The position numbers and the translations under genes were made by a program. DNA of 64,000 nt, taken from the NCBI RefSeq assembly GCF_003018115.1, contig NZ_CP027457.1; one strand, written 5' to 3'. Positions 1 to 36,685 of the stretch are shown here, piece by piece; the stretch's first letter is position 1, and every line of letters begins with the position of its first letter. The DNA is from Escherichia coli (GTDB lineage Bacteria > Pseudomonadota > Gammaproteobacteria > Enterobacterales > Enterobacteriaceae). The notes below the pieces were generated by a model. It was not told the DNA's origin. It ran no database searches and worked only from the letters and a program-made list of their open reading frames with translations.

Positions 1-201
1 ATGACCGATGCGCTGTGGTTGACCACACCGTGGACTGATATCTCTGGCGAAGTGGGGCAGATGGATAAGACCACAGTCAAATTTTCGATTCCAATGGATA
101 ACGCCATTTCGCTGCGTACGGTAGATGATAACGGCTGGTTTGGCGAAGTCAGCGCTTCAGGAGAAATTCATGTTCAGGCGACGTGGCGTAACATTAACTA
201 A
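1..201 (+). CDS. ecpD: EcpD fimbrial tip adhesin, C-terminal end (partial, runs off window start)
   Basis: ORF reads into window from upstream; position directly before ecpE in ecp operon order; identity from synteny rather than sequence recognition. Confidence 0.6.
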
Positions 202-880
202 GGCCCTGCTGACAGCGGTCTGTATGCTGGCGGCACCTTTGACACAGGCGATTTCGGTCGGCAATCTGACATTTTCGCTGCCGTCCGAGACTGACTTTGT
301 CAGCAAACGTGTAGTGAATAACAACAAAAGCGCACGGATATACCGTATTGCCATCAGTGCTATTGATAGCCCGGGCAGCAGTGAATTGCGCACCCGACCG
401 GTGGATGGTGAACTGCTTTTCGCCCCCCGCCAGCTGGCGTTGCAGGCTGGTGAGAGCGAGTATTTTAAATTTTACTATCATGGTCCACAGGATAACCGCG
501 AGCGCTACTACCGGGTCTCATTTCGCGAGGTCCCCACTCGTAACCAGACAAGACGCAGCCCAACCGGCGGCGAGGTCAGCACGGAGCCGGTGGTGGTGAT
601 GGATACCATTCTGGTAGTACGACCACGTCAGGTTCAGTTTAAATGGTCCTTCGATCAGGTGACCGGAACGGTAAGTAACACCGGCAACACGTGGTTTAAG
701 CTACTGATTAAACCAGGATGTGATTCGACCGAAGAGGAAGGCGATGCCTGGTATCTACGTCCGGGAGACGTGGTTCATCAGCCTGAGTTACGTCAGCCGG
801 GGAATCATTATCTGGTCTATAACGACAAATTCATTAAGATTAGCGATTCCTGTCCGGCTAAGCCCCCTTCGGCGGACTAA
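170..880 (+). CDS. ecpE: EcpE (YagV) fimbrial chaperone
   Basis: Translation [27 protein letters not shown]... with signal peptide; start chosen at internal Met 170 (overlaps ecpD end), 236 aa. Confidence 0.8.
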
Positions 881-1192
881 GACTTATCCATCGGTCGAGG
901 GAAGAATTCCACTTCAGAGCCCCAAAAATCGTTTAAATGATGTGGAAGCGATCGTCAATATCACCTGTAACGATGGGCTTTCTCATATGCACACCATAGT
1001 GTTCAGGAGACACGGAAAGGTATCAGGCAGCCTGCTAACGAGTGGTTTATTCACGAATTAGTACGTAAAATCGGTAACGGCTGGAAATCATTCAATACTC
1101 ACACTATCGAAAGTTCCCCAGCCAACCGCGGTACGTTCTTACATACGATGTACCGCTGTTCTCTTTACGATTTATAGCTGTACTGGTGAATT

Positions 1193-1522
1193 ATGAGCAA
1201 TCTGAATCCATGCATGACGTGTGGTGCCTGTTGTGCATTTTTCCGCGTCTCTTTTTACTGGGCCGAAGCCGACGATGCTGGTGGTACCATTCCCGCCAGG
1301 CTCACTGAACAAATATCCCCTTTTCACCGATGCATGAGCGGAACTAATCAGAAAAACCCCCGATGTATTGCCCTTGCAGGAACCCCGGGCAAAAATGCCT
1401 GCTGCACGATATATAAAAATCGATCGTCCACATGCAGAGAATTCGCCATGTCTGGTGAGAACGGAGTCGTCAATGAGGCTTGCAATCGTGCAAGGGCTAA
1501 ATACGGGCTGACACCGTTATAA
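1193..1522 (+). CDS. ykgJ: YkgJ family cysteine-cluster protein
   Basis: 109 aa, Cys-rich N-terminus [17 protein letters not shown]; synteny between ecpE and yagU. Confidence 0.8.
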
Positions 1523-1545
1523 ACATACAATAATTAATTGCACTG

Positions 1546-1578
1546 CCCCGCCTACTGTAATAGCGGGGCTTCGTTTTC
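1546..1578 (+). terminator. rho-independent terminator after ykgJ
   Basis: GC stem ccccgc...gcgggg followed by cttcgttttc. Confidence 0.5.
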
Positions 1579-1726
1579 AGGGACAACAAAACCCGAAACT
1601 TATTGTATTTGCCTGCAACAATGCCTCTCTTCTGTAGCGTTCTTCGGATCTACATCATCCTGAAGTAGCACGATATACTCACTGACTATCTGAATCAGAA
1701 TATAAAAAGCAATGTTTTTAACCTAT

Positions 1727-1755
1727 AAAAATGGCGCTGTATTTGCGCCATTTTT
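1727..1755. terminator. bidirectional hairpin between ykgJ and yagU (convergent)
   Basis: Perfect inverted repeat aaaaatggcgc-tgtattt-gcgccattttt flanked by A/T runs on both sides. Confidence 0.55.
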
Positions 1756-1768
1756 ATCATTCAATGCA

Positions 1769-2383
1769 TTATCTGTTTGAGCCTAAAGGGATCTCAGGGT
1801 CTGGCTCATGAGTAATTCTGTTTCGTAAATCTCTGCGAATAATTTCAATGGACCAGAACCAGACTAAATGTCCAAAAATTTCAGAAACATTCTCATACCA
1901 CGGGAGATCAAACAGAGGTGGTGTCAGTCCCATGAGAGGGAATGAAATCATATGAACAAAAAGTTGGGCTAAAGCACCTGCCAGTAAGCCCTGCCAGAGT
2001 TTAATTTTTGGAAATACTTCAGCGACCACACAATAACCGACAGCAAACACTATCGAAAAGATAATGTGCGTAACACCAACCCAGTTAAAGACATGCCCGG
2101 CAAAGGTATAAACAGCCGCATTGGGATCTGTCAGCCCCAGCCAGTCTCGAAGAAAAATATACGGAGGATTGAGAAAATTACGCGAGCAATCAATTTGCCC
2201 AGCAGCCCTGATTAATGATTCCGGGCCACACGCTGCATTAAACATATCCACCGGGCTACGTGGCGGCAATGGAACTTCAGCCCCCCACTTCACAAATGCG
2301 GAAACAACGCCAGCAATCAGCCCAATGAATGCAGCAAGACCATAACGTCTGCGGTTCGGTGGAGTTTGTTCAAATATATTCAT
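1769..2383 (-). CDS. yagU: YagU inner membrane protein (DUF1440)
   Basis: 204 aa hydrophobic protein; synteny next to paoA. Confidence 0.85.
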
Positions 2384-2800
2384 ATCTACCCTGCTTGTAC
2401 CATTATGTTATACACCTCTTCAGGAGTATTCATAAAACAAGGAAAATGTAAAGAACTGTATTGTTTTGTATAACAAGATGGTTGTCTAATCACCAAAGAA
2501 TATAAGCACCATCATTTCTCCCTATTTTTATATTAGAAGTGACATAGATTTGCAGGGTGATGCAGAGCTGACAATCACAGGTTTCCTTATCGGTTTTTGC
2601 ATCGTACAACTAAAGCAATAAAACAGCTCCCATCATCATCAACATCCCGGCGAACATGAATTTATTAGCCGGGCTCATAGCTGCATTCGCGTTTTAAGAA
2701 TAATCCTCCTGCTGTCGCCGACTATGCTTAACGTTTAAAAAAGCATCAGCACTCTCGCAACGCACTCTTATTTTCCCCTTTAGAATACCGGAGGCCTGGT

Positions 2801-3490
2801 ATGAGCAACCAAGGCGAATACCCCGAAGATAATCGGGTTGGGAAGCACGAGCCGCACGATTTTAGTTTGACCCGTCGCGATCTGATTAAAGTGAGCGCCG
2901 CAACGGCGGCGACCGCCGTGGTTTATCCTCATTCTACGCTTGCGGCAAGCGTTCCGGCAGCTACACCCGCGCCTGAGATAATGCCCCTGACACTTAAGGT
3001 GAACGGCAAAACCGAGCAGCTTGAAGTGGATACCCGAACCACGCTACTGGACGCTTTGCGTGAAAATCTGCATTTGATCGGTACCAAGAAAGGTTGCGAT
3101 CACGGACAGTGCGGAGCCTGTACCGTGCTGGTCAATGGTCGCAGGCTTAATGCCTGCCTGACGCTTGCAGTCATGCATCAGGGGGCCGAGATCACCACCA
3201 TTGAAGGCCTGGGTTCACCAGATAATCTTCACCCCATGCAGGCGGCCTTTATCAAGCATGATGGCTTCCAGTGCGGCTACTGTACCTCCGGGCAAATTTG
3301 CTCATCAGTAGCGGTGCTAAAAGAGATTCAGGACGGCATTCCCAGTCACGTCACGGTCGATTTGGTTTCCCCTCCAGAAACAACTGCCGATGAGATCCGT
3401 GAACGTATGAGCGGCAACATCTGTCGCTGTGGTGCATACGCTAACATCCTTGCCGCCATTGAAGACGCTGCGGGGGAGATAAAATCATGA
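2801..3490 (+). CDS. paoA: Aldehyde oxidoreductase 2Fe-2S subunit PaoA, Tat-exported
   Basis: 229 aa; twin-arginine motif TRRDLIK; Cys motifs CDHGQCGAC and CGYC typical of 2Fe-2S ferredoxin subunit. Confidence 0.9.
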
Positions 3491-4443
3491 AGGCGTTTAC
3501 CTATGAACGAGTGAACACCCCGGCCGAGGCGGCACTTAGCGCTCAGCGCGTACCCGGCGCAAAATTTATCGCGGGCGGGACCAATCTGCTGGACCTGATG
3601 AAGCTGGAAATTGAAACGCCCACCCACCTTATCGATGTGAACGGGCTCGGGCTCGATAAGATTGAAGTGACCGACGCGGGTGGGCTGCGCATCGGCGCAC
3701 TGGTACGGAACACCGACCTGGCGGCTCACGAGCGCGTGCGTCGTGATTACGCGGTACTCTCCCGCGCCCTGCTCGCTGGCGCGTCTGGTCAGTTACGCAA
3801 TCAGGCAACCACCGCAGGTAATCTGCTCCAGCGCACGCGCTGCCCCTATTTTTACGACACCAATCAGCCCTGCAATAAGCGCCTGCCCGGGAGCGGCTGC
3901 GCGGCGCTTGAAGGCTTTAGCCGTCAGCACGCGGTGGTAGGCGTAAGCGAAGCCTGCATTGCCACCCATCCGAGCGATATGGCGGTCGCAATGCGGTTGC
4001 TGGATGCGGTGGTGGAAACCATCACGCCGGAGGGAAAGACTCGCAGTATCACACTGGCTGATTTTTATCACCCACCGGGGAAAACGCCGCACATTGAAAC
4101 CGCCCTGCTTCCCGGTGAGCTTATCGTTGCGGTGACGTTACCTCCGCCGCTCGGCGGAAAACATATTTACCGTAAGGTGCGCGATCGCGCCTCCTACGCC
4201 TTTGCCCTGGTATCGGTCGCGGCGATTATTCAGCCTGACGGCAGCGGGCGCGTCGCGCTGGGCGGAGTAGCACATAAGCCCTGGCGCATTGAGGCTGCGG
4301 ATGCTCAGCTATCCCAGGGGGCACAGGCCGTATATGACACGCTGTTCGCCAGCGCCCATCCCACCGCTGAAAACACCTTTAAACTCCTGTTGGCGAAGCG
4401 AACGCTTGCCTCCGTACTGGCTGAAGCGAGGGCACAGGCATGA
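3487..4443 (+). CDS. paoB: Aldehyde oxidoreductase FAD-binding subunit PaoB
   Basis: 318 aa; start overlaps paoA stop (ATGA); FAD-binding molybdopterin dehydrogenase-like. Confidence 0.9.
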
Positions 4444-6638
4444 AATTTGATAAACCCGCAGGGGAAAACCCGATCGATCAGCTGAAGGTTGTCGGTCGTC
4501 CCCATGACCGCATCGACGGACCGCTGAAAACTACCGGCACGGCACGCTACGCCTACGAATGGCATGAAGAGGCCCCCAACGCCGCCTATGGCTATATCGT
4601 CGGTTCCGCCATTGCCAAAGGACGCCTCACCGCCCTTGATACGGACGCCGCGCAAAAAGCGCCGGGCGTACTGGCTGTCATTACCGCCAGTAACGCCGGG
4701 GCACTCGGCAAAGGCGACAAAAACACCGCCAGGCTGTTAGGCGGCCCCACTATTGAGCACTATCATCAGGCCATTGCGCTGGTAGTGGCCGAGACCTTCG
4801 AACAGGCGCGAGCGGCGGCCTCGCTGGTGCAGGCACACTATCGCCGTAATAAAGGAGCTTACTCCCTGGCGGACGAAAAACAGGCCGTCAATCAGCCGCC
4901 GGAAGACACGCCCGACAAAAACGTCGGTGACTTTGACGGGGCTTTCACCTCCGCTGCGGTGAAGATTGATGCTACCTACACGACCCCGGACCAGAGCCAT
5001 ATGGCGATGGAGCCGCATGCCTCGATGGCCGTCTGGGATGGAAATAAGCTTACTCTCTGGACCTCAAATCAGATGATTGACTGGTGCCGCACCGATCTGG
5101 CAAAAACGCTAAAAGTGCCCGTGGAGAATGTGCGTATTATCTCCCCGTATATCGGCGGAGGGTTTGGCGGCAAGCTGTTCCTGAGAAGCGATGCGCTGCT
5201 GGCAGCCCTCGCCGCCCGAGCGGTGAAACGTCCGGTTAAAGTGATGCTCCCCCGCCCCACTATTCCCAATAACACCACGCACCGCCCCGCCACCCTTCAG
5301 CACTTGCGTATCGGTGCCGACCAGAGCGGGAAAATCACCGCTATCTCACATGAAAGCTGGTCCGGAAACCTGCCCGGCGGCACGCCGGAAACGGCGGTAC
5401 AGCAAAGCGAATTACTCTACGCCGGGGCAAACCGTCATACCGGCCTGCGGCTCGCCACGCTTGATTTGCCGGAAGGGAACGCCATGCGTGCGCCCGGCGA
5501 AGCCCCCGGTCTGATGGCGCTCGAAATCGCGATCGACGAACTGGCGGAAAAAGCGGGCATCGATCCCGTCGAGTTTCGCATCCTGAATGACACTCAGGTT
5601 GACCCCGCCGACCCGACGCGCCGCTTCTCTCGCCGTCAGCTTATTGAGTGCTTGCGCACCGGAGCGGATAAATTTGGCTGGAAGCAGCGCAACGCCACAC
5701 CCGGACAGGTACGCGACGGAGAGTGGCTAGTCGGCCACGGCGTCGCGGCGGGCTTTCGCAATAATCTGCTGGAAAAATCGGGGGCTCGGGTTCACCTCGA
5801 ACCAAACGGCACCGTTACCGTGGAAACGGACATGACCGACATTGGCACCGGCAGCTACACCATTCTGGCCCAGACGGCAGCGGAAATGCTTGGCGTACCG
5901 CTGGAGCAGGTTGCGGTTCACCTCGGCGATTCCAGTTTCCCGGTTTCTGCGGGTTCTGGTGGACAATGGGGCGCGAATACCTCCACCTCCGGCGTTTACG
6001 CCGCCTGTGTGAAGCTTCGCGAAATGATTGCCTCGGCAGTCGGGTTTGATCCTGAGCAGTCGCAGTTTGCCGACGGCAAGATTACCAACGGTACCCGAAG
6101 CGCCATGCTACATGAGGCCACCGCAGGCGGCAGACTGACAGCGGAAGAGAGCATTGAATTCGGAACACTGAGCAAGGAGTACCAGCAGTCGACCTTTGCC
6201 GGGCATTTTGTGGAGGTCGGCGTGCATAGCGCGACGGGAGAAGTTCGGGTCCGGCGTATGCTCGCTGTGTGTGCTGCAGGACGCATCCTGAATCCGAAAA
6301 CTGCACGCAGCCAGGTCATTGGCGCAATGACTATGGGCATGGGCGCGGCACTGATGGAGGAGCTGGCGGTGGATGACCGTTTGGGCTACTTCGTTAATCA
6401 CGATATGGTGGGGTATGAGGTGCCGGTCCATGCGGATATCCCAAAACAGGAGGTGATTTTCCTGGATGATACCGACCCCATATCCTCCCCGATGAAGGCC
6501 AAAGGTGTCGGTGAGCTGGGCCTGTGCGGCGTGAGCGCTGCTATCGCCAACGCGGTGTATAACGCCACCGGTATTCGGGTACGCGATTATCCCATCACTC
6601 TGGATAAGCTGCTCGATAAGCTGCCGGATGTGGTTTAA
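4440..6638 (+). CDS. paoC: Aldehyde oxidoreductase molybdopterin-binding large subunit PaoC
   Basis: 732 aa; overlaps paoB stop; xanthine dehydrogenase family large subunit. Confidence 0.9.
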
Positions 6639-6647
6639 GGAGGAACA

Positions 6648-7604
6648 ATGTCATACCCGCTTTTTGATAAAGACGAACACTGGCATAAGCCAGAGCAGGC
6701 GTTTCTCACCGATGACCACCGTACCATTCTGCGCTTCGCCGTAGAGGCGCTAATGTCCGGTAAAGGAGCGGTGCTGGTGACGCTGGTGGAGATACGCGGC
6801 GGTGCGGCGCGCCCGCTCGGGGCGCAGATGGTGGTGCGCGAAGATGGTCGTTACTGCGGTTTTGTCTCTGGCGGCTGCGTGGAGGCCGCTGCCGCTTTTG
6901 AAGCGCTGGAGATGATGGGCTCAGGCCGCGATCGCGAAATTCGCTATGGCGAAGGTTCGCCGTGGTTTGACATCGTTCTGCCCTGCGGCGGTGGGATCAC
7001 GCTGACGCTCCATAAACTACGCTCGGCACAGCCTCTGCTCGCCGTGCTGAACCGCCTGGAACAGAGAAAACCGGCGGGGCTGCGCTACGATCCGCAAGCA
7101 CAATCGTTGGTGTGCCTGCCCACGCAAACCCGAACGGGCTGGAATCTCAATGGCTTTGAGGTGGGGTTCAGGCCATGCGTCAGGCTGATGATTTACGGAC
7201 GTTCTCTTGAGGCGCAGGCAACCGCGAGTCTTGCAGCAGCCACAGGCTATGACAGCCATATCTTCGATCTTTTTCCGGCCTCAGCCAGCGCTCAGATCGA
7301 TACCGACACGGCGGTCATTTTGCTGTGCCATGATCTCAACCGGGAGCTGCCAGTGTTGCAGGCCGCGCGAGAAGCAAAACCCTTTTATCTCGGCGCATTG
7401 GGCAGCTATCGAACCCACACGTTACGTCTGCAAAAGCTCCACGAGCGGGGATGGTCCAGGGAGGAGACAGCGCAAATCCGGGCACCCGTCGGGATATTCC
7501 CCAAAGCCCGGGATGCGCATACTCTGGCACTCTCCGTGCTGGCAGAAGTCGCCTCTGTACGTCTCCATCAGGAGGAGGATTCATGCCTGCCCCCGTCGTG
7601 CTGA
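6648..7604 (+). CDS. paoD: Molybdenum cofactor insertion chaperone PaoD (XdhC family)
   Basis: 318 aa; follows paoC by 9 nt with AGGAGG RBS. Confidence 0.85.
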   Translation: MSYPLFDKDEHWHKPEQAFLTDDHRTILRFAVEALMSGKGAVLVTLVEIRGGAARPLGAQMVVREDGRYCGFVSGGCVEAAAAFEALEMMGSGRDREIRYGEGSPWFDIVLPCGGGITLTLHKLRSAQPLLAVLNRLEQRKPAGLRYDPQAQSLVCLPTQTRTGWNLNGFEVGFRPCVRLMIYGRSLEAQATASLAAATGYDSHIFDLFPASASAQIDTDTAVILLCHDLNRELPVLQAAREAKPFYLGALGSYRTHTLRLQKLHERGWSREETAQIRAPVGIFPKARDAHTLALSVLAEVASVRLHQEEDSCLPPSC

Positions 7605-7663
7605 TCCTTGCGGCCGGGCGTGGAAAGCGCTTTCTCACCTCCGGGGGAAATACCATAAATTAA
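7583..7663 (+). pseudogene. 26-codon N-terminal stub of a MobA/MocA-like nucleotidyltransferase
   Basis: GAGGAGGATTC-ATG then MPAPVVLILAAGRGKRF (LAAGxGxRF motif), stop after 26 codons; overlaps paoD end. Confidence 0.4.
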
Positions 7664-7782
7664 GAGAAAAATCTGCAGTAGCCGTTTTAGAAAATCACCT
7701 AAATCATTTAAAAGAGCGACCTACCCATAGTGGGTGCTCATCGCCTTGTGTAACTTATTCAGCAACGCGCGCCCTCGCCGGA

Positions 7783-8976
7783 CTAAAGCGCACCGGCCTT
7801 CTGGCGTGCGGTAACAAAGGTCAGTACGCCCGCGCAAAGGAGCAGCACACTACTCATGGCAAACGTACTCTGCCAGCCAAGGCGGTCAAACACGATGCCT
7901 CCTGCCGTTGATCCAAGGGCGATTGAGAGCTGAATCACCGCGACCATGAGCCCGCCTCCGGCTTCGGCGTTGTCAGGCAACGTACGCGCAATCCATGTCC
8001 ACCATCCGGTTGGCGCGGCGGTGGCCAGCATGCCCCAGAGTCCTAACAGCAGCGAGACCGTCCAGACGTGATGCCCGGTAAGCATCAGACCGATGGCAAT
8101 GACGGCCATCAGTCCGGGTATGGCCATCAGCGTGGGGTAGAATTTTCTGTTGAGAAATGTCGAAACAACCAGCGTGCCAATAAAACCGGCCACGCCGATA
8201 ATCAGCAAAATCAACGACAAGCCTAAGGAATTAACCCGTGTCACCGACTCCAGAAACGGGCGCACATAGGTGAATAGCGCAAACTGCCCCATGAAAAACA
8301 GGCCACAAGCTATCATGCCGACCACAACCATGCGGCGGCTAAATAAGCGGAATACCGCGCCACATGACGTGTGGCTTTTATTCGCATCCATGCTGGGCAG
8401 ACTAATGCACTGCCAGATAAAGGCGACAACCGCCATGGGCACCAGGCACAAGAAAGCGCCTCGCCATCCGACCGTAGCCCCCAGATAGCTTCCCAGCGGC
8501 GCGGCCACGACCGTCGCCAGCGCATTACCGGCGTTGAAAATCGCCAGCGCACGCGTGACCTGATGCTGCGGCACCAGACGAATCGCCGTTGCCGCTGACA
8601 TCGACCAGAATCCGCCAATGGCCACACCAATCATCGCACGACCGACCATATACATCAGATAACTGGTAGCCAGCGCAATAATAAGCCCCGATACGGCCAT
8701 CAGAACCGTCATCCCCAGCAGCAGGAACTTACGATTCATCTTTCCAGCTAGCGTTGAAAGCGTCAGGCTGGTCAGAACAGCCAGCGCGCCGGAGATAGCA
8801 ATCCCCTGCCCTGCAAGCCCCTCCGTCACGCCTAAATCGCGGGTAATCGGCGTGAGCAGGCTGACGGGCATAAATTCAGAAGCAATCAGCACAAACACGC
8901 ACAGGGTCATAGCAAAAATACCGCCCCAGTATGCGTGCTGATGATGAGGTGATGGTGTTTGGCTTAGTGTCGACAT
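7783..8976 (-). CDS. MFS family transporter (12 TM)
   Basis: 397 aa highly hydrophobic, MFS-like helices and loop motifs. Confidence 0.75.
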   Translation of the reverse strand: MSTLSQTPSPHHQHAYWGGIFAMTLCVFVLIASEFMPVSLLTPITRDLGVTEGLAGQGIAISGALAVLTSLTLSTLAGKMNRKFLLLGMTVLMAVSGLIIALATSYLMYMVGRAMIGVAIGGFWSMSAATAIRLVPQHQVTRALAIFNAGNALATVVAAPLGSYLGATVGWRGAFLCLVPMAVVAFIWQCISLPSMDANKSHTSCGAVFRLFSRRMVVVGMIACGLFFMGQFALFTYVRPFLESVTRVNSLGLSLILLIIGVAGFIGTLVVSTFLNRKFYPTLMAIPGLMAVIAIGLMLTGHHVWTVSLLLGLWGMLATAAPTGWWTWIARTLPDNAEAGGGLMVAVIQLSIALGSTAGGIVFDRLGWQSTFAMSSVLLLCAGVLTFVTARQKAGAL

Positions 8977-9051
8977 AGTGAAATTTCACAAAGATCAGGA
9001 TAAAAGCCACCTGCCATAGACCGGTGGCTTTGCATCAATTCAGGAGAGGTT

Positions 9052-10188
9052 TTATTTCAGTTTGGTCTGGAAAAATTGTTCGAACTTCGCGAAAGGTATT
9101 TTTCCGGCCACGTTATCGTACAGGTCCACGTGATTTGCCCCTGGTACCACCACCAACTCTTTGTCTTTACTGCCAACCGCCTTGTAAGCATCTTCAGCAA
9201 AATAGCGTGAATGCGCTTTCTCACCGGTCACAATCAGCGTCGGGATGGTGATTTCACTGGCGTATCTCAACAGCGGCATATTCATAAATGACAGCGGCAT
9301 CGTTGCCGTCCACGCCCCGGTAGAGTTAACGGAACGTTCGTGGAAGCCGCGCGGCATGCGATAGTAGTCAAAGAACTCTTTCAGTACCGGATGAGGATTT
9401 GCCGGCAGCGTTTCTGGCAGAATACGCTCGCCCGCACTGACCTTGCCGTTGCTATCGACATTAATATCATGACCACCGTGAGCGAACGTTCCGCTATGCG
9501 CATCCTTCCAGCGCTGTTCATTCAGATATTGCAGAACAGCACGACGGTCGGCGGTAGAATAACGGTCTTTGCCATCCCCCACACCATGACCCATCGCCCG
9601 GCTCATGTCATACATCACGCTGGTAGCTACCGCTTTAACGCGGGTATCCATCGCCACGTCGTTCAGCGCCATGCCGCCCCAGCCACAAATACCGAGCAGC
9701 CCGATACGGTTGCGGTCTACCTCTTTTTGCAGCCCTAAGAAATCCACCGCCGCGCTGAAATCTTCAGTGTTGATATCCGGTGAGGCGACGTTTCGCGGAT
9801 AGCCGCCGCTTTCCCCGGTGTAAGAAGGATCGAACGCCAGGGTAACAAACCCTCGTTCCGCCAGCGTCTGCGCATACAGGCCGCTGGATTGCTCTTTCAC
9901 CGCGCCAAATGGCCCACTGACCGCAATCGCCGCCAGCTTGCGATCGCCACGGTCTTTAGGCAGGTAAAGATCGCCCACTAAGGTGATGCCATATCGGTTC
10001 GGGAACGAGACTTTACGGTGATCGACTTTCTGGCTCTCGGCGAACGTTTTATCCCATTTATCTGTCATGGACACAGGGGCATTAGGATTGGTTGAATCAG
10101 CATAACTCATTGTCGTGACTCCACTTAATGATGCGAAAAGCAGCATGGTCGGCATCGCGGTTTTTAGCGTTCGGGTGAAGGCTTTCAT
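9052..10188 (-). CDS. Secreted alpha/beta hydrolase, Cys-nucleophile (dienelactone-hydrolase-like)
   Basis: Signal peptide MKAFTRTLKTAMPTMLLFASLSG; nucleophile elbow GICGWGG; start set at internal Met. Confidence 0.6.
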   Translation of the reverse strand: MKAFTRTLKTAMPTMLLFASLSGVTTMSYADSTNPNAPVSMTDKWDKTFAESQKVDHRKVSFPNRYGITLVGDLYLPKDRGDRKLAAIAVSGPFGAVKEQSSGLYAQTLAERGFVTLAFDPSYTGESGGYPRNVASPDINTEDFSAAVDFLGLQKEVDRNRIGLLGICGWGGMALNDVAMDTRVKAVATSVMYDMSRAMGHGVGDGKDRYSTADRRAVLQYLNEQRWKDAHSGTFAHGGHDINVDSNGKVSAGERILPETLPANPHPVLKEFFDYYRMPRGFHERSVNSTGAWTATMPLSFMNMPLLRYASEITIPTLIVTGEKAHSRYFAEDAYKAVGSKDKELVVVPGANHVDLYDNVAGKIPFAKFEQFFQTKLK

Positions 10189-10374
10189 AAAAATCCCCAT
10201 AAAAAACAACAGAGAGATACAGGTTTCCGACGGACAACGCTGCGGTGCTTTACTTTGATGGGGTCATTATAGTGAGCAGAATTAGTGCTGATTAGGGGGC
10301 GATTAATGCTAAGATTAATACCATATTGTTATAAATTAATGCGGAGATTGCCGGCATGAAGGGGGGATGTTTCA

Positions 10375-11259
10375 ATGGCGAAAAGGGAGAACTACAACGA
10401 GCTGTACCTGTTTATGCAGGTGGTGCGGGAAGGCAGCTTTACCGCAGCGGCTCAGCGGCTGGGTCTTGCTCAGTCAGGAGTCAGCCGTTCTGTTCGCGAG
10501 CTTGAAGAAAGGCTGGGTGTCCAGCTGCTAGTGCGCACCACGCGTAAACTGTCGCTGACACAAGCAGGCGAGCAGCTCTACCAGAAGACGGCATCTGGAT
10601 TTGAAATGTTAGATCTTGGGCTTGCCACACTGGCGCACTATCGAGAGACGCCCTCCGGCACGGTGCGTATCAATGCCAGCCAGCACGCGATTGATAAATG
10701 CCTGCTGCCAAAGCTGGCGGTATTTAAACAGCGATATCCTGATATCCGGCTTGAACTGATAAATGAGAGCCGGTTCGTCGATATCATCGAGGAAAGATTC
10801 GATGCAGGTGTCCGCCTGGGGCCTGAAGTCGGCCAGGGTATGGTCGCGGTACGCATCACGCCCGATATGGAGATGGCAATTGTGGGGACTCCGGAACATT
10901 TTCGTCGTTATGGTTTTCCGCAAACCCCGGCGGATTTAAAGGCGCATCCCTGTATCGCCTATCAGTTTGCCGACGGCAGCGTATACCAGTGGGAACTCAA
11001 TCAGGATGATAAAAAAATCACTCATCGCCCTGAAGGGCAATGGGCCCTATCCGACAGCTATATGGAAGCAGAAGCCGCCCGGCTGGGCCTCGGATTGGCC
11101 TATGTTCCTGTTGAACTGGTCGCGGATGATTTAGAACACGGTAACCTTATCAGGGTGTTGCAGCGTTACAGCCTGCGAATGGAGGGATTGTTTCTCTATT
11201 ACCCTCATCGCAACGTCTCCCCCGCTCTGCGGATGGTCATTGATACATTGAAAATCTGA
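10375..11259 (+). CDS. LysR-family transcriptional regulator
   Basis: 294 aa; N-terminal HTH FTAAAQRLGLAQSGVSRSVRELEERLG; divergent from hydrolase-MFS genes. Confidence 0.85.
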   Translation: MAKRENYNELYLFMQVVREGSFTAAAQRLGLAQSGVSRSVRELEERLGVQLLVRTTRKLSLTQAGEQLYQKTASGFEMLDLGLATLAHYRETPSGTVRINASQHAIDKCLLPKLAVFKQRYPDIRLELINESRFVDIIEERFDAGVRLGPEVGQGMVAVRITPDMEMAIVGTPEHFRRYGFPQTPADLKAHPCIAYQFADGSVYQWELNQDDKKITHRPEGQWALSDSYMEAEAARLGLGLAYVPVELVADDLEHGNLIRVLQRYSLRMEGLFLYYPHRNVSPALRMVIDTLKI

Positions 11260-11968
11260 ACGTTAACAACGACCGACTCTTCACTGTGCAATATTGTGTC
11301 AGGTAGTCACTCTGCGTTCAATTCCAGGGGCCGCTTTGAGCGAGAAAGAGCGGACTTATCTGTATAAGGGGACTATCCAGCAATGGAGATCACCCAAAAG
11401 AAAAAACTACCTGGCTCCCTCAACAACCTTCATCCGGGAATTTAGCCTCAATCAACATTTTTATATCTGTCAGGTTACTTCATTATGAAAACCGATCAAT
11501 ATCGTTGTTTTTGTAGTAATAATAGAATACGCGTATTTATTCCTCCATTTCTATTAATAACAGCCATAAACTGTTCACTTCACTGATATTTAAAATATGC
11601 ATCCTTTTCCTGCTTTTCAAGTTGTTCAGCGGCGTAAGAAAACGTATTAAATATGAATTCGACGATTTAACCATTTCTGTCTGATTGGTAATCATCTGTG
11701 ATTAATGCTGGTCTATTGATTACGCCAGCATTAACCGCTTAGGGATGTATTCTTCCTGATCATATACAGCCCTCGAAAAAGAGAGAAAATAAAACTGTGT
11801 CCAATATTACTCTACCACTCCAGACCGAAGCATCGGTAGAATTAGCAGAACGACTGGTACAGAAGGTGGGTATAGCGTCATTTGTCGGGCATTCCATTGC
11901 CATCATAATGATAATTTTGAATCAATAGACGTGCTTCTTGATCATGTCTTAAAATTATACCATGAGCC

Positions 11969-12199
11969 TTATGAAGCATCATTTTTACTGACTGGTGTTA
12001 ACTTTGCTATCATATAAACTCTGTTCTTAAAAAACGCGCCCAGAATTTTATATGATTTCCCTTGTTTTTCTGCCTGTAAAGAAATTTCTTTTTCAGTGCT
12101 GTCAATAGTTGAACCGACGGCAGTAATCGTTTTGGCGACGCTACTGAATGATAATAAAGACAGTGCAACCACAACAATTAAAGAACAGATAGTATTCAT
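11969..12199 (-). CDS. Small secreted protein, DUF1471 (BhsA/McbA/YdgH-like) candidate
   Basis: Signal peptide MNTICSLIVVVALSLLSFSSVA then ~55 aa mature domain; start at internal Met of ORF 11969..12247. Confidence 0.45.
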   Translation of the reverse strand: MNTICSLIVVVALSLLSFSSVAKTITAVGSTIDSTEKEISLQAEKQGKSYKILGAFFKNRVYMIAKLTPVSKNDAS

Positions 12200-12412
12200 G
12201 CTAATTCTCCTGACAATTAAGAGGATGAGTTTTATATATAAAGGCATTAAACATGAGTCATATTTACTTCCTGTGAAAATAATCTTTCTGTAATTAAACC
12301 TTCATCTCCTTCGGGGTGAGCAATACATAATGCATCTTGCTATGAAAAACACAGGGATATATAAATCTTCCTTCTGACCTATTTAATAAAACGTGAATGT
12401 AAAAGTTATTCT

Positions 12413-13135
12413 TCAGTTTGCAGATGCAGTGGGTCTGATGGTAATTTCGGTTGTATCAACGCTTTCGGGAGATTCAATAATATGCCTTACCGCACGGGCA
12501 ATATCCGCAGGTTGAAGTGCAACAGAACGGTAGGAGTCCATTGCCTTCATGGTTTCCACATGGGTAATGGTTGAAGCCAGTTCACTTTCGACAACGCCAG
12601 GATTTACGCAGGTCACACGGATTTTCGAGCTTTCCTGCCGTAAGCCATCAGAAATAGCCCGTACTGCAAATTTTGATGCACAATAGACTGCGCCTGTGGG
12701 CACAACAGAAAGGGCACCAATAGAACCAAGATTGATTATCTGACCGGAACCCTGTGCTTCCATCACCGGAAGTACAGCGCCAATTCCCCACAGTACACCT
12801 TTGATATTCACGTCAATAGTGAGCGCCCATTCATCTTGTTTTCCTGCTGCAAGCGGTGAAAGCGGCATAACGCCCGCATTATTGATAAGAACATCAACTC
12901 GCCCCCAGCTATCCAGCGCTGCTTGCACGAAATCGGCCATGGACTGTCGGTCTGTGACATCCAACTCCCGCGCTTTAGCAATTCCTCCTGCGCGGCAGAT
13001 TTCGGTTGCAATGGCTTCGATACGCTCAACTCTGCGTGCTCCCAGTAAAACCTTTGCACCTGTCGTTCCAAGCTCTCTGGCAATACCTTCCCCAATACCA
13101 CTTGATGCGCCGGTAATTAATATGACCTTATCCAT
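12413..13135 (-). CDS. Short-chain dehydrogenase/reductase (SDR)
   Basis: TGASSGIG NAD(P)-binding motif, YCASK catalytic motif; start at MDKVILITG. Confidence 0.85.
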   Translation of the reverse strand: MDKVILITGASSGIGEGIARELGTTGAKVLLGARRVERIEAIATEICRAGGIAKARELDVTDRQSMADFVQAALDSWGRVDVLINNAGVMPLSPLAAGKQDEWALTIDVNIKGVLWGIGAVLPVMEAQGSGQIINLGSIGALSVVPTGAVYCASKFAVRAISDGLRQESSKIRVTCVNPGVVESELASTITHVETMKAMDSYRSVALQPADIARAVRHIIESPESVDTTEITIRPTASAN

Positions 13136-13233
13136 TACGTTCTCCTTCAAATGTGTTCGGAGAGAGAATAGAACTTTATGATTGGTTCCAGTATCCTGCT
13201 TTCAATGTACTCAGTGGTTAGCGGCATTAAACA

Positions 13234-14133
13234 ATGAAAATCGATCTTAATCTTTTACCCATTTTTATCGCGGTAGCAGAAGAGAGTAATTTTAGTAAAG
13301 CCGCCGCACGACTGGGCGTTACCCGTTCAGCGGTCAGTCAGGGAATAAGACGTCTTGAAGATGCATTCGGGACAATGCTTGTAATGCGGACCACGCGCTC
13401 AGTTAATTTGACGGAAGCGGGAGAACGGCTGCATAAATCGTTGTCATTACCTTTATCCGGTATTGAGGCAGCGTTCGAAGAGATGGTCTCTGACCATGTA
13501 CCACGTGGACATCTCAGAATCGCGGTGACGTCGATAGCAGAAGAATTTCTTTCAGGTCCGCTAATCGCTTCGTTTGCAGCTGCCAATCCAGCCGTTACGC
13601 TTGATATTGTTGTCACGGATGAGGAATTCGATATCGTTGCCGCAGGTTACGATGCTGGCGTAAGGCTCGGAGAGGTCATTGAAAAAGACATGATTGCTGT
13701 TCCCCTTACCGGCAGGCAGCGTGAAATGGTCGTTGCCTCTCCCTCCTATCTCGCAGCCAACAGCACACCTGTTCATCCGCGTGAACTTGTGAATCATAAG
13801 TGTATCGGCTGGCGTCAGTCCCCGGAGGTTGCGCCTTATCGCTGGCCATTTGAAGAAAACGGGAGAGCTTTCGACCTTGCGATTGAACCGCAGATTACGA
13901 CTAATGATCTGCGTCTGATGTTGCGGCTGGCTCTTGCCGGTGGAGGAATAACAATTGCCACTCAGGAAACTTTCAGGCCGTATATTGAAAGCGGTAAGCT
14001 TGTATCTCTGCTTGATGACTTTCTTCCACAATTTCCGGGCTTCTATCTGTATTTCCCACAGCGTCGCAATATTGCACCAAAGCTCCGCGCCCTGATTGAC
14101 CACGTCAAGGAATGGCGGCAGCAATTGGCTTAA
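13234..14133 (+). CDS. LysR-family transcriptional regulator (possibly the intact counterpart of K-12 yagP fragment)
   Basis: 299 aa; HTH FSKAAARLGVTRSAVSQGIRRLE; divergent from SDR. Confidence 0.8.
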   Translation: MKIDLNLLPIFIAVAEESNFSKAAARLGVTRSAVSQGIRRLEDAFGTMLVMRTTRSVNLTEAGERLHKSLSLPLSGIEAAFEEMVSDHVPRGHLRIAVTSIAEEFLSGPLIASFAAANPAVTLDIVVTDEEFDIVAAGYDAGVRLGEVIEKDMIAVPLTGRQREMVVASPSYLAANSTPVHPRELVNHKCIGWRQSPEVAPYRWPFEENGRAFDLAIEPQITTNDLRLMLRLALAGGGITIATQETFRPYIESGKLVSLLDDFLPQFPGFYLYFPQRRNIAPKLRALIDHVKEWRQQLA

Positions 14134-14259
14134 ATGTCTGCACCTACATTGCCTGATGTCAGAACAGTATTTTGATTAATTGCCAGGGTTACAATGGCAC
14201 AAATACGGCACAGGAGGAAACGTGGTGTATTTAAATATGGGGTAACTACTTGATTTAAA

Positions 14260-14335
14260 TGGTGCCGATAATAGGAGTCGAACCTACGACCTTCGCATTA
14301 CGAATGCGCTGCTCTACCAACTGAGCTATATCGGC
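14260..14335 (-). tRNA. thrW: tRNA-Thr (anticodon CGU)
   Basis: Reverse complement reads GCCGATATAGCTCAGTTGGTAGAGCAGCGCATTCGTAATGCG...TTCGACTCCTATTATCGGCACCA; cloverleaf with CGT anticodon and CCA end. Confidence 0.9.
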
Positions 14336-14449
14336 CCTGAAAGGACATGTTCACGAACGTGAATCACGGTGGACAAGGTTAAAACTAACCGGGCGATGCG
14401 TCAATGGCCTTGTGAATCAAATGGCTACTTTTGCATCACCCGGTTTTAT

Positions 14450-15703
14450 TTACGCACGAATGGTGTAATCACCAATGCCGATCCACTTGTAAGTGGTCAG
14501 TGCTTCCAGCCCCATTGGGCCACGCGCGTGGAGTTTTTGTGTGCTTACCGCCACTTCCGCGCCCAGTCCAAACTGGCCGCCGTCGGTAAAACGCGTAGAG
14601 GCGTTAACGTAAACAGCGGACGAATCCACTTCGTTAACAAAACGCTGGGCGTTGCGCATATCGCGGGTCAGGATCGCATCGGAGTGTTGCGTGCCGTGTT
14701 CACGAATATGGGCGATGGCATCGTCAAGATCGCTGACGATTTTGACGTTCAAATCTAATGACAGAAACTCATCGTCATACTCTTCGGCTTTAACCGCCAC
14801 CACCTTCGCAGGGCCTGTCTGCAACTGCGCCAGCGCAGCTGCATCTGCGTGTAACGTCACGCCGCTTTCCGCCATTTGTTTGCTTAATGCGGGCAGGAAG
14901 CTATCGGCGATGTTTTTATTCACCAGCAACGTTTCTACCGTATTACATGTGCTCGGACGCTGGGTTTTCGCGTTGACGATCACTTTTAATGCTTCAGCGA
15001 TCTCTGCACTTTCATCAACGTAAATATGGCATACGCCTATACCACCAGTGATCACCGGGATCGTCGACTGCTCGCGGCACAGTTTATGCAAACCAGCCCC
15101 GCCGCGCGGGATCAGCATGTCGATGTATTTATCCATACGCAGCATTTCACTGACCAGCGCACGGTCAGGATTATCAATCGCCTGCACGGCACCCGCCGGT
15201 AAGCCACAGGATTTCAGGGCGTCCTGAATCACCGCCACCGTTGCAGCGTTAGTGCGACACGTTTCTTTGCCGCCGCGCAGGATCACTGCGTTACCTGTTT
15301 TCAGGCACAGCGAAGCGACATCAACCGTCACGTTCGGGCGCGCTTCATAAATCACGCCAATAACCCCCAGCGGTACGCGACGACGCTCAAGACGCAGGCC
15401 GCTGTCCAGTACGCCGCCATCGATTACCTGCCCCACCGGATCGGCGAGGTTGCACACCTGGCGCACATCATCGGCAATGCCTTTCAGCCGTGCGGGCGTC
15501 AGTGCCAGACGGTCAAGCATCGCTTCGCTAAGGCCATTGGCTCGCGCGTCAGCAACATCCTGGGCGTTAGCGTTGAGGATGATTTCGCTTTGTGCTTCCA
15601 GTTCATCGGCGATTTTTTCCAGCACACGATTTTTTTCGCGGCTGGAGAGTTGCGCTAATTTATACGAGGCTTGCTTCGCGGCAATGCCCATTTGTTCCAG
15701 CAT
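14450..15703 (-). CDS. proA: Gamma-glutamyl phosphate reductase
   Basis: 417 aa; [19 protein letters not shown]...; synteny proB-proA-thrW. Confidence 0.95.
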
Positions 15704-15714
15704 CGGCCAGCTCC

Positions 15715-16818
15715 TTAACGGGTAATCATGTCATCACGGTGAACGGCAACCGGGCCGTATTCATATCCCAGTATTGCATCAATTTCTTGCGAGTGGTGCC
15801 CGGCAATACGGCGTAATGCATCGCTGTTGTAACGACTGACGCCGTGGGCGATATCGCGACCTTCGAGGTTGCAAATGCGGATGACTTCACCACGCGAGAA
15901 ATTGCCAGTCACGCTTTTAATGCCTTTCGGCAACAGGGAGCTGCCGCGTTCAAGAATGGCGGCGGTTGCCCCTTCATCTACCGTGATTTCACCCGCAGGC
16001 GGCGCACCGAAAATCCAGCGTTTACGGTTTTCAAGCGGAGTCGCCTGGGCATGGAACAGCGTACCGACGGAAATGCCTTCCATCACATCACCAATGACGC
16101 CCGGCTTGCTGCCCGCGGCAATAATGGTGTCGATACCCGCACGGCAAGCCACGTCCGCGGCCTGCAATTTGGTACTCATGCCGCCAGTTCCGAGGCCTGA
16201 AACGCTGTCACCGGCAATCGCGCGCAGTGCGTCATCAATGCCGTAAACATCTTTAATCAGTTCTGCCTGCGGATTGCTGCGCGGGTCAGCGGTATACAAA
16301 CCTTTTTGATCGGTCAGTAACAACAGTTTATCGGCACCCGCCAGAATCGCCGCCAGCGCAGAAAGGTTGTCGTTATCGCCGACTTTAATCTCTGCCGTAG
16401 CGACAGCATCGTTCTCATTGATTACCGGAACGATATTGTTATCGAGCAACGCACGCAGGGTGTCGCGGGCGTTCAGGAAGCGTTCACGGTCTTCCATATC
16501 AGCACGAGTCAGCAGCATTTGCCCGACGTGAATGCCATAAATCGAAAACAGCTGTTCCCACAGTTGAATCAGTCGACTCTGCCCTACCGCCGCCAGCAGT
16601 TGTTTCGAGGCGATAGTCGCTGGCAGTTCCGGGTAACCCAGGTGCTCACGTCCGGCGGCGATCGCGCCCGACGTCACAATAACAATCCGATGCCCGGCGG
16701 CATGTAACTGCGCGCACTGGCGAACAAGTTCAACGATATGGGCACGGTTCAGGCGGCGCGATCCGCCTGTTAGCACACTGGTGCCGAGTTTTACCACCAG
16801 CGTCTGGCTGTCACTCAT
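15715..16818 (-). CDS. proB: Glutamate 5-kinase
   Basis: Start set at [16 protein letters not shown] (367 aa); ORF extends upstream to 16905 but canonical start is internal. Confidence 0.9.
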
Positions 16819-17006
16819 GATTCTCTGCCATTCAATTTTAGGAAAAATGATATCAAACGAACGTTTTAGCAGGACTGTCGTCGGTTGCCAACCATCTGCG
16901 AGCAAAGCATGGTGTTTTGTTGCGCGGGATCAGCAAGCGTAGCGGCAGTTGTTTACGCTTTCATTACAGATTTAATAAATTACCACATTTTAAGAATATC
17001 ATTAAT

Positions 17007-17028
17007 CTGTAATATATCTTTAACAATC
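17007..17028 (+). promoter_or_regulatory. Pho box (PhoB binding site) in phoE promoter
   Basis: CTGTAATATATCTTTAACAATC matches two direct CTGTCATA-like repeats about 80 bp upstream of phoE ATG. Confidence 0.6.
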
Positions 17029-17105
17029 TCAGGTTAAAAACTTTCCTGTTTTCAACGGGGCTCTCCCGCTGAATATTCGCGCGTTAATTAAAATCAGGAA
17101 TGAAA

Positions 17106-18161
17106 ATGAAAAAGAGCACTCTGGCATTAGTGGTGATGGGCATTGTGGCATCTGCATCCGTACAGGCCGCAGAAATATATAACAAAGACGGTAATAAACT
17201 GGATGTCTATGGCAAAGTTAAAGCCATGCATTATATGAGTGATAACGACAGTAAAGATGGCGACCAGAGTTATATCCGTTTTGGTTTTAAAGGCGAAACA
17301 CAAATTAACGATCAACTGACTGGTTATGGTCGTTGGGAAGCAGAGTTTGCCGGTAATAAAGCAGAGAGTGATACTGCACAGCAAAAAACGCGTCTCGCTT
17401 TTGCCGGGTTGAAATATAAAGATTTGGGTTCTTTCGATTATGGTCGTAACCTGGGCGCGTTGTATGACGTGGAAGCCTGGACCGATATGTTCCCGGAATT
17501 TGGTGGCGACTCCTCGGCGCAGACCGACAACTTTATGACCAAACGCGCCAGCGGTCTGGCGACGTATCGGAACACCGACTTCTTCGGCGTTATCGATGGC
17601 CTGAACTTAACCCTGCAATATCAAGGGAAAAACGAAAACCGCGACGTTAAAAAGCAAAACGGCGATGGCTTCGGCACGTCATTGACATATGACTTTGGCG
17701 GCAGCGATTTCGCCATTAGTGGGGCCTATACCAACTCAGATCGCACCAACGAGCAGAACCTGCAAAGCCGTGGCACAGGCAAGCGTGCAGAAGCATGGGC
17801 AACAGGTCTGAAATACGATGCCAATAATATTTATCTGGCAACTTTTTATTCTGAAACACGCAAAATGACGCCAATATCTGGCGGCTTTGCCAATAAAACT
17901 CAGAACTTTGAAGCGGTCGCTCAATACCAGTTTGACTTTGGTCTGCGTCCATCGCTGGGTTATGTCTTATCGAAAGGGAAAGATATTGAAGGTATCGGTG
18001 ATGAAGATCTGGTCAATTATATCGATGTCGGGGCTACATATTATTTCAACAAAAATATGTCAGCGTTTGTTGATTATAAAATCAACCAACTGGATAGCGA
18101 TAACAAATTGAATATTAATAATGATGATATTGTCGCGGTTGGCATGACCTATCAGTTTTAA
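17106..18161 (+). CDS. phoE: Outer membrane phosphoporin PhoE
   Basis: [21 protein letters not shown] signal peptide, C-terminal ...VAVGMTYQF porin terminus. Confidence 0.95.
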
Positions 18162-18199
18162 TGATTATTGCCGGATGTGATGCATCCGGCACATTTCAC

Positions 18200-18658
<459 letters not shown>

Positions 18659-19903
18659 TTAACACAAGCGTTTTTCGATCCAGCCGGTGATTTCCTGAAG
18701 ACCTTTGTCAAAATTCCGATACACCGGGTTAAATGGGATCTCTAATAATTTACCGTCAGCAGATGATGAGGTGATTAAGCGTGAGTCCTCTTCCGGGCTG
18801 AACGGATCGTTCTTCCAGTAGCCTGATAACATTGGCGTTGGGCAGCGACGTCCCAGCAATCCTTGCACTTTTAATGAATAGCGATTCAGCTCCACGCGCA
18901 ACGCGTCATCGGAAGCATCATGCATCCCCAAACGACTCGCCAGAACGTCAAGATACATTTCCGGCACCTGTTGCTGGCACTTAAAATCACTCAACAGGGT
19001 ATGAACTACCGGACCAAGACAGGCAACCGCTTTCAGACGCGGCGATTCAAGGTATGCCAGACGCACGGCAACGTTAGCGCCGAAACGGAAACCAAAGGCC
19101 GCGACGCGAGTGTGATCCACCCACGGTACGTTAGGCAGCGCCTTTAAGACGTGCTGATGCAACAGGCTGGAGTCCTGGGTGAGCTTCCATTTTGAAGAAA
19201 AGCCCACCGACGGCATATCAATAGTCAGCATCGCAATGCCGCGCGGCGCAAAATAACGTTCATACAGGCTGTAATAGTCCGTCTGCATCGCATCCAGACC
19301 ACCACACATTAATACTGTCGGGAACGGGCCATCGCCTTTCGGCATATGCAAAAAGCCGGTGATGGGCGCACCGCCGGGTACGGTAAACTCCATCTGCCGC
19401 ATCGTGCCCGGCAGACGCTGGGCGGCCTCTTCATAGGCGCGGTTTGATAAAGCCTGCGCTTGCTCGGCCAGGTCATCTCCTTTCAGATGAGGATAGGCGG
19501 CAATGTTGTACAACGTAGCCGCATGCAGCCAGTGTCGACCACTGAGTTGCGGATCTTCTTCCGCACAGGCTTTTTGTTGCCACACCATCGCCTGGGTGGC
19601 CCACTCATAAATCCAGTTGCCACCACGGTAGCCAATCACGGTATCGTATAAATCATCATCGGTACGTTCAGCATCGCTCATCACAATACGTGCCTGGACG
19701 TCGAGGATTTCACGTGGGTCAATGCCGCGCCAGATCCACATCAGACGGTTAATCATGCGATACCAGTGAGGGATGGTTTTACCATCAAGGGCCGACTGCA
19801 CAGGCGGTTGTGCGCCGTGATTAAAGCGGCGGACTAGCGTCGAGGTTTCAGGATGTTTAAAGCGGGGTTTGAACAGGGTTTCGCTCAGGTTTGCCTGTGT
19901 CAT
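18659..19903 (-). CDS. frsA: Esterase FrsA (fermentation/respiration switch protein)
   Basis: 414 aa; synteny crl-frsA-gpt. Confidence 0.9.
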
Positions 19904-19994
19904 GGATGCAGCCTCCAGAATACTTACTGGAAACTATTGTAACCCGCCTGAAGTTAAAAAGAACAACGCCCGGCAGTGCCAGGCGTTGAAAAGA

Positions 19995-20453
19995 TTAGCG
20001 ACCGGAGATTGGCGGGACGAATACGACGCCCATATCCCACGGCTGTTCGATCCAGGTATCTTGCGGGATATCAACAACATAATCATCAACCAGCGGACGA
20101 CCAGCCGGTTTTGCAAAGATGGTGACAAAGTGCGCTTTTGGATACATTTCACGAATCGCAACCGCAGTACCACCGGTATCCACCAGGTCATCAATAACGA
20201 TGAAGCCTTCGCCATCGCCTTCTGCGCGTTTCAGCACTTTAAGCTCGCGCTGGTTGTCGTGATCGTAGCTGGAAATACAAACGGTATCGACATGACGAAT
20301 ACCCAGTTCACGCGCCAGTAACGCACCCGGTACCAGACCGCCACGGCTTACGGCAATAATGCCTTTCCATTGTTCAGAAGGCATCAGTCGGCTTGCGAGT
20401 TTACGTGCATGGATCTGCAACATGTCCCAGGTGACGATGTATTTTTCGCTCAT
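19995..20453 (-). CDS. gpt: Xanthine-guanine phosphoribosyltransferase
   Basis: 152 aa [23 protein letters not shown]...; PRTase motif [11 protein letters not shown]. Confidence 0.95.
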
Positions 20454-20713
20454 GTGAAGTGTCCCAGCCTGTTTATCTACGGCTTAAAAAGTGTTCGAGG
20501 GGAAAATAGGTTGCGCGAGATTATAGAGATCTGGCGCACTAAAAACCAGTATTTCACATGAGTCCGCGTCTTTTTACGCACTGCCTCTCCCTGACGCGGG
20601 ATAAAGTGGTATTCTCAAACATATCTCGCAAGCATGTCTTGTGTTGACAACATTTTCTGCTAACCCTGTGACCTGCAATACTGTTTTGCGGGTGATCGAC
20701 AAGGAGACTTAAC

Positions 20714-36239: not shown

Positions 36240-36680
36240 GAGAGTCGGGGAAGACTACGAAAGCCCGCTCTCCTGCGACCACTTTTATCATAGGAGTGTG
36301 GAAGTGCTTTTCCATCAATCGCGATGACGTCTTTGTCATTTGATGAATGGCAGTCACGCATCCAGTTAATAAAGCACTCGTGAAATTTTGCAGGACTGAT
36401 ACAGGATACAACTCTGGCAATGGTATCGTGAACAGGAATACCATTTTCAAAATCACCATATTGCTTCAAAAAATCGAGATGTGTTTCCCCAAAATCCTCT
36501 ATATCTTCCCAACCTTCTGCACCAGAAATAACGGCACAAATAGTCAACAGTAGAATATCCGATAATTTATGTTCCACGTTCCAGGCTTGTCTGTAATCGG
36601 GGATAACAGAAATATGTTCCATCAATTTTTTAAGTTCCATTTTGTTCTCCTTAATTATGTAAGGAGTATTTGATCCAGGG
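36240..36680 (-). mobile_element. Internally deleted ISAs1-family (H-repeat) element; encodes only first ~120 aa of transposase
   Basis: Near-identical to 37420..37860 (same antisense ORF on both copies); protein diverges after ...DKS; shared end motif ACGAAAGCCCGCTC at both elements. Confidence 0.75.
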
Positions 36681-36685
36681 CAAGA

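Follow-up and report, generated by a model that had tools for sequence, protein, structure and literature searches.

Few tDNA hot spots in E. coli are used as often as the tRNA-Thr gene thrW (PMC7545054). The Sf phages of Shigella use thrW, downstream of proA, as their integration site and are in some cases found there in tandem (PMC3306764), and the thrW-integrating phages have a 46-nt core sequence (PMC3636060). This stretch is identical in the attP sites of HK75 and SfX and is used by SfI, SfII, SfV, SfX and P22. The same chromosomal target is taken by a number of pathogenicity islands, namely PAI III-536, the APEC O1 and UM146 islands, the APEC VAT island and LAA (PMC7545054). In the K-12 strain MG1655 the resident element is the cryptic prophage CP4-6; this feature starts inside thrW (262898) and ends 109 nt beyond intF (297205). 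Here we describe the thrW site in a 64-kb stretch of DNA (the window), which, in contrast to the genomes with thrW pathogenicity islands, is island-free and thus in the recipient state.

The window is E. coli chromosome, with the gene order ecpDE-ykgJ-yagU-paoABCD-...-thrW-proAB-phoE-crl-frsA-gpt-pepD... Around the site the order is proB-proA, a probable terminator hairpin, thrW, a 126-nt spacer and a full-length LysR gene of the yagP type (Table 1). ARAGORN finds one tRNA gene in the 64 kb, tRNA-Thr(cgt), on the minus strand. It scores 71.8 bits against the Rfam tRNA model RF00005, has the full length of 76 nt with the anticodon CGT, and is identical to K-12 thrW at 76 of 76 positions. The initial annotation had described thrW as intact, with the LysR gene ending about 125 bp from its 3' end and proA lying about 115 bp from the other side. 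These statements agree with our measurements: the gene is complete, there are 126 nt between the LysR stop codon and the tRNA 3' end, and there are 114 nt between the proA stop codon and the tRNA 5' end. The positions 14134 to 14449 are exactly the intergenic interval from the LysR gene to proA.

There is a hairpin in the gap between proA and thrW with a predicted folding energy of -39.1 kcal/mol (z = -4.0), and none of 200 shuffled sequences folded as stably. This is probably the terminator of proBA, lying upstream of thrW. A simple terminator scan omitted it because of its long loop, and a consensus scan of both thrW intergenic regions gave no promoter-like site or terminator. Only the hairpin after proA stands out, as there is no stable fold in the 3' flank of thrW (z = 0.11). 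Rfam gave no RNA element other than the tRNA between 11 and 15 kb. A match to 'Plastid-ycf2' antisense to the tRNA scored 28.8 bits, far under the gathering score of 65.7, and was dismissed.

Table 1. Features at and around the thrW site, in window coordinates
Feature	Position	Strand	Evidence or remark
6.1-kb segment, present in the window and deleted in K-12	7659..13794	.	blastn against K-12, Pfam, annotation of colinear genomes
LysR-family regulator, full-length, 299 aa; outer (B') flank of the attachment site	13234..14133	+	Pfam HTH_1 and LysR_substrate
58-nt spacer, LysR (yagP) stop to integrase vestige	14134..14191	.	alignment; without phage homology
Putative 68-nt vestige of the attP P' arm of SfX/HK75-type lambdoid phages	14192..14259	+	alignments to phages, DFK.1 and K-12
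att core, 46 nt, equal to the last 46 nt of thrW (ATTCGTAATGCGAAGGTCGTAGGTTCGACTCCTATTATCGGCACCA)	14260..14305	-	single copy in the window
thrW, tRNA-Thr(CGU), intact	14260..14335	-	ARAGORN, Rfam RF00005, identity with K-12
Hairpin, 13-bp stem, 5 nt past the proA stop, then AGUUUUAA	14387..14445	-	RNA fold
proA, conserved inner flank of the site	14450..15703	-	Pfam Aldedh; annotated proA in colinear genomes

The window was searched for the traces that an integrated element would be expected to leave at thrW. In a pattern search that allowed up to 3 mismatches, the last 30 nt of the tRNA had no second match in the window. When every k-mer from the tRNA and the 30 nt downstream of it was compared with both strands of the 64 kb, no repeat reached 12 nt, and 11-mer matches elsewhere in the window numbered three, where about three are expected by chance. 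A repeat search over 7–16 kb gave just short chance pairs of low identity, none of which overlaps the tRNA gene.

The results for integrases were also negative. The Pfam domain search took in all ORFs of at least 80 aa between paoD and proA, and there is no integrase, transposase or phage domain in the six ORFs between paoD and thrW. When HK75 Int, K-12 IntF and the two integrases of F9792 (the closest relative of the window within the set of complete genomes) were compared with the 64-kb window by tblastn, there was no integrase match at E ≤ 1. YagA and YagL gave only a weak YagA-like match over the same 64 kb (E = 0.076), in the ISEc1 area. Additionally, no integrase is annotated over the span of the window in colinear genomes. 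Hence there is neither an adjacent or distal integrase nor a direct repeat of the tRNA 3' end, as an integrated island or prophage at thrW would show. The absence of an integrase gene and of an att duplication, both of which had been claimed from the sequence at the outset, was borne out by these searches: the core occurs once, and nothing beyond chance resembles a second tRNA 3' copy, including in the 7.6–14.2 kb block. The claim about the integrase needs one qualification, a frameshifted int fragment of 54 nt beside the tRNA, which is described below.

A comparison with the K-12 thrW/CP4-6 junctions had also been proposed. Window 14242–18206 matches the thrW-proA-proB-phoE side of K-12 by blastn, and window 13795–14311 matches the yagP side, including the partial thrW copy beside intF. 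The raw sequences of the K-12 junctions agree with the blastn result in that the outer flanks of CP4-6 are the two halves of the window junction. Because the window matches both outer flanks, it is equivalent to K-12 minus CP4-6 with the two att copies merged, which is an empty, unsplit attB. The comparison also confirms the outer boundary of CP4-6 at the yagP-side att copy. The two sites have an identical thrW and the same flanks on the proA and yagP sides, but the window lacks the island, intF and the duplication of the 3' part of thrW. They differ further in that yagP is full length in the window and the 6.1 kb between paoD and yagP is kept, whereas this segment is lost in K-12. K-12 yagP aligns only to window 13795–14133. 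Judged by this alignment, the LysR gene of the window is the intact form of the K-12 fragment yagP, and yagP is a truncated LysR gene.

In F9792 the thrW site is occupied. F9792 is 99.98% identical to the window over 1–14276, with a 100% match to the block at 7659–13794, and 99.8% identical over 14242–39535. The two flanks are about 54 kb apart, and the att sequence occurs three times, as the full tRNA, as a 45-nt copy and as a copy of about 17 nt. Reading through the insert, there is a prophage of about 39 kb, with an annotated int that stops 14 nt from the tRNA, followed by the 45-nt att copy, an integrase/primase (P4-like) satellite of about 14 kb, and finally the copy of about 17 nt beside yagP. 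The flanks are near-identical to those of the window on both sides, and the yagP-side flank is the same down to the vestige listed in Table 1, but the window has no prophage, no satellite and no extra att copies. Single-base deletions were seen in F9792 relative to the window at 2123, 14266 and 21261, with the result that yagU and pepD are frameshifted and the att copy beside yagP lacks 1 nt; none of the three bases is missing from the window. These deletions may be sequencing errors in the F9792 assembly.

Taken together, the intact tRNA, the single att core, the lack of a mobility gene at the site, and flanks that equal the outer flanks of the occupied sites in K-12 and F9792 indicate that the interval between the LysR gene and proA is very probably an unoccupied attB at the 3' end of the thrW gene. 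Recombination by the tyrosine integrases of a number of element families takes place within the last 17–52 nt of thrW; these families are the SfX/HK75/P22-type and e14-like lambdoid phages, the P4-like satellites and the CP4-6-type islands. Since no such element is present in the strain, the thrW gene has the sole copy of the att core and the site should be free to receive one. We infer that the strain would in principle be lysogenisable through thrW by phages, satellites and islands that target this gene.

In order to see how common this state is, we used an 801-nt query (window 13900–14700) against 5,426 complete E. coli genomes. The thrW junction is contiguous in 947 of them (17%). In the remaining genomes the match is interrupted at the tRNA end or slightly 3' of it, where an integrase is often annotated; in about one-tenth of genomes, however, the break is at query position 293 and not at the tRNA end. 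The entire 7–16 kb arrangement is contiguous in 390 genomes. An empty thrW is thus a minority but ordinary state, found in about one in six E. coli genomes, and is already known.

The 6.1-kb block at 7659–13794 contains genes for an MFS transporter, an alpha/beta hydrolase, a LysR regulator and an SDR oxidoreductase, together with a ykgR-like fragment, an orphan ORF of 92 aa and the 5' part of yagP. There are no mobility genes and no att copy in the 6.1-kb segment. In K-12, the deletion of approximately 7659–13794 has a 5-nt overlap at its junction and has left the C-terminal yagP fragment abutting paoD. The 7.6–14.2 kb block is therefore unlikely to be an insertion relative to K-12; it is K-12 that carries the deletion. 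Of the 5,426 genomes, 957 have some or all of the 6.1-kb block and 423 have it at 80% coverage or more. Further deletion variants of the 7659–13794 stretch occur in other E. coli. Within the block there is an AT-rich gap (11260–12412, GC 0.36). Positions 11489–11622 share 87% identity with the ykgR region that lies elsewhere in E. coli; in relatives they are annotated as a partial ykgR pseudogene. The 92-aa ORF (11969–12247, minus strand) has no Pfam match. In the strain DFK.1 (locus L009, 163–11361), an 11-kb island replaces the pao operon, the block and yagP (window 2549–14191). This island contains hsdRMS, AbiEi/AbiEii, two decayed integrases and a 45-nt copy of thrW. The replacement in DFK.1 indicates that, at the species level, the whole stretch from yagU to thrW is variable.

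Two other histories of the site have to be considered. The distribution of the block, which makes it accessory, would also be expected if the stretch from paoD to thrW (7.6–14.2 kb), or even from yagU to thrW (2.5–14.2 kb), were a decayed thrW island whose integrase and distal att copy had eroded. The uneven GC content (0.36 at 11.5–12.5 kb against 0.56–0.61 in the MFS and pao genes), the replacement of window 2549–14191 by a different 11-kb island in DFK.1 and the position of the int stub at the tRNA-proximal edge of the block could be read in the same way. However, the 64 kb contain no further att copy that reaches 12 nt, the block has no integrase, transposase or phage domain, and it encodes a transporter together with regulators and oxidoreductases. 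Both K-12 and F9792 have the distal att copy of their resident elements on the tRNA side of yagP, so that yagP behaves as chromosomal flank, and K-12 lost the block, truncating yagP, by a simple deletion with a 5-nt overlap. A decayed island is thus very unlikely. The other history has the site empty through very recent loss, by precise excision or by a segment swap through homologous recombination, and not through long vacancy. F9792 is nearly identical to the window on the yagP side, where there are one SNP and two single-base indels in 14.3 kb, yet an insert of about 54 kb occupies its thrW. There are 45 differences between F9792 and the window on the proA side; 38 cluster in 14981–20510 (proA to frsA) and about five fall in the next 19 kb. 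This cluster abuts thrW and has the signature of an imported tract; it looks like a homologous-recombination import, and the tract may have carried the empty or the occupied state of thrW along with it, in either direction. It is equally possible, however, that the elements or the tract were acquired by F9792, and precise excision leaves no mark by which the sequence could decide. We regard recent loss as plausible, although at somewhat less than an even chance.

The flank of the empty attB on the yagP side is not what a textbook attB would have, namely sequence unrelated to the phage, but is phage-like. The 68 nt between the 58-nt spacer and the tRNA match SfX at 60 of 68 positions and HK75 at 58 of 68, whereas the best of 2,000 shuffles reached 47 of 68. 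Positions 14192–14245 correspond to the last 17 codons of int and its stop codon (TAA, 14243–14245), with a 1-nt deletion near 14218 that causes a frameshift, and positions 14246–14259 are a 14-nt spacer between the int stop codon and the att core. The homology to int starts abruptly at 14192 (CAATGGCAC...) and continues through the stop codon and spacer into the 46-nt core, as it does in the phage attP. The stub reads toward the tRNA and its stop codon lies 14 nt from the core, again as in the phages. Homology to the P' arm and the int 3' end is thus contiguous with the core in the phage orientation and the coding capacity has been lost, as would be expected of a prophage remnant.

The site can therefore be set beside the attB of a group of lambdoid phages (SfI, SfII, SfV, SfX, P22, HK75, mEp043, mEp213, mEpX2, HK446, HK542 and ECP1). 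The 46-nt core is present once in the window and the adjacent 68 nt match the P' arm of these phages (int tail plus 14-nt spacer). In contrast to the phages, the window keeps only the last 54 nt of int, in frameshifted form, and the rest of the phage and the second core are absent. The match to DFK.1 is closer (66 of 68). In this strain a PGAP-annotated integrase pseudogene of 204 nt ends 14 nt from thrW, and the window aligns to its last 54 nt and to the spacer. The pseudogene has the same allele-specific substitutions as the 68 nt of the window and runs on into the region of the catalytic Tyr (VRR*AHL), which now holds a stop codon. The peptide of the DFK.1 remnant is 92.9% identical to the Int C-terminus of SfX, HK75, mEpX2, HK542, HK446, ECP1, mEp043 and mEp213, and matches int1 of F9792 at E = 7e-20.

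The stub is widespread. It is also found beside the yagP-side att copy in K-12, where the attR flank matches at 65 of 68 positions, and in F9792, and it is present in NCTC10444 too. The DFK.1 query matches 3,851 of 5,426 genomes (71%), most of which have a piece of 68–69 nt. The stub is thus uninformative on the window strain specifically, because it is common to about 71% of E. coli, K-12 included. A literature search found no earlier description of an int remnant at empty thrW sites in the papers that were read. The 68-nt scar is the sole addition to the known picture of the empty site and is a minor detail.

The 68 nt on the 3' side of the tRNA are most likely the fossil of an old prophage of the SfX/HK75 type. 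According to this model, such a prophage once occupied thrW, and its int gene stopped 14 nt short of the tRNA. All of the prophage except the last 54 nt of int would then have been deleted, the distal att copy included, which brought the stub next to the yagP flank. This deletion would predate the divergence of the present lineages, with strains of the DFK.1 type keeping a longer piece of the same allele. An old date is suggested by the finding of the same stub in most E. coli and beside the yagP-side att copies in both K-12 and F9792. This deletion history is inferred from sequence comparison.

The reverse relationship would be that the phages did the borrowing, with the P' arm of the SfX/HK75 type holding host-derived sequence (an extended attP-attB homology) and the flank being native to the chromosome. 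The last 17 or so residues of Int are unlike between the integrase families that use thrW (int1 of F9792 against HK75 Int), and the tail could therefore be foreign. Additionally, a comparable piece adjoins thrW in Kluyvera. However, in DFK.1 the same allele continues unbroken for 204 nt into clear integrase coding sequence, up to the catalytic-Tyr region, which argues that the host flank derives from int and not the reverse. In the window the homology stops sharply at 14192 and is frameshifted, as expected of a truncated pseudogene. Several of the nine SfX/HK75 differences are at third codon positions (CAG/CAA, GTG/GTT and TAT/TAC), suggesting that the allele diverged while it was still coding, although differences also occur in the last two codons and in the spacer. 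Borrowing by the phages is therefore unlikely. The Kluyvera case is an otherwise empty thrW in Kluyvera genomosp. 3 YDC799 (locus L016, 840–900) with an int-tail piece of the HK75/SfX type of about 45–59 nt. The order at this site is aldo/keto reductase, about 340 nt, thrW and proA, and the stub allele is more phage-like than that of the window. This is apparently a second, independent stub of similar size, but it could also mean that the similarity arose differently, for instance through capture of host flank by a phage or through a constraint on the stretch. A scan of genome contigs across species for the exact pattern of the fossil allele gave no loci. A looser pattern gave 11 loci, several of which have an intact or partial integrase beside thrW and one of which is the Kluyvera vestige; there was no Escherichia outgroup with an empty thrW among these 11. 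A further suggestion is that the stub has been kept in most E. coli, and independently in Kluyvera, for a function, either in tRNA 3' trailer or termination signals or as arm-type binding sites for Int or IHF, through which this attB would behave like a resident attL. In both cases the function could help explain why thrW is busy and prone to tandem insertion. There is no excess conservation of the stub between the window and K-12, with 65 of 68 positions identical in the vestige and about 54 of 58 in the adjacent non-phage spacer, and neither conservation nor the fold of the 3' flank (z = 0.11) gives a sign of function. We consider a function extremely unlikely.

The old-prophage origin of the stub would mean that a tRNA site that counts as empty can still record earlier occupancy. 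The window also provides a clean attB reference for delimiting the elements in F9792 and K-12. The practical value of the finding is small.

Finally, there are differences from close relatives in the distal part of the window. At approximately 36265–37821, between yafV and the Rhs/type VI secretion genes, there is an ISEc1 (ISAs1-family) transposase gene with a partial second copy, according to the F9792 annotation, and this stretch is where the window differs from NCTC10444. A further 24 kb or so (39535–63516) are colinear with the type VI secretion region of NCTC10444, from the Rhs core protein gene via VgrG and Hcp to tssM. In F9792 the stretch 39535–63516 is deleted, between an Rhs fragment and the C-terminal part of tssM.
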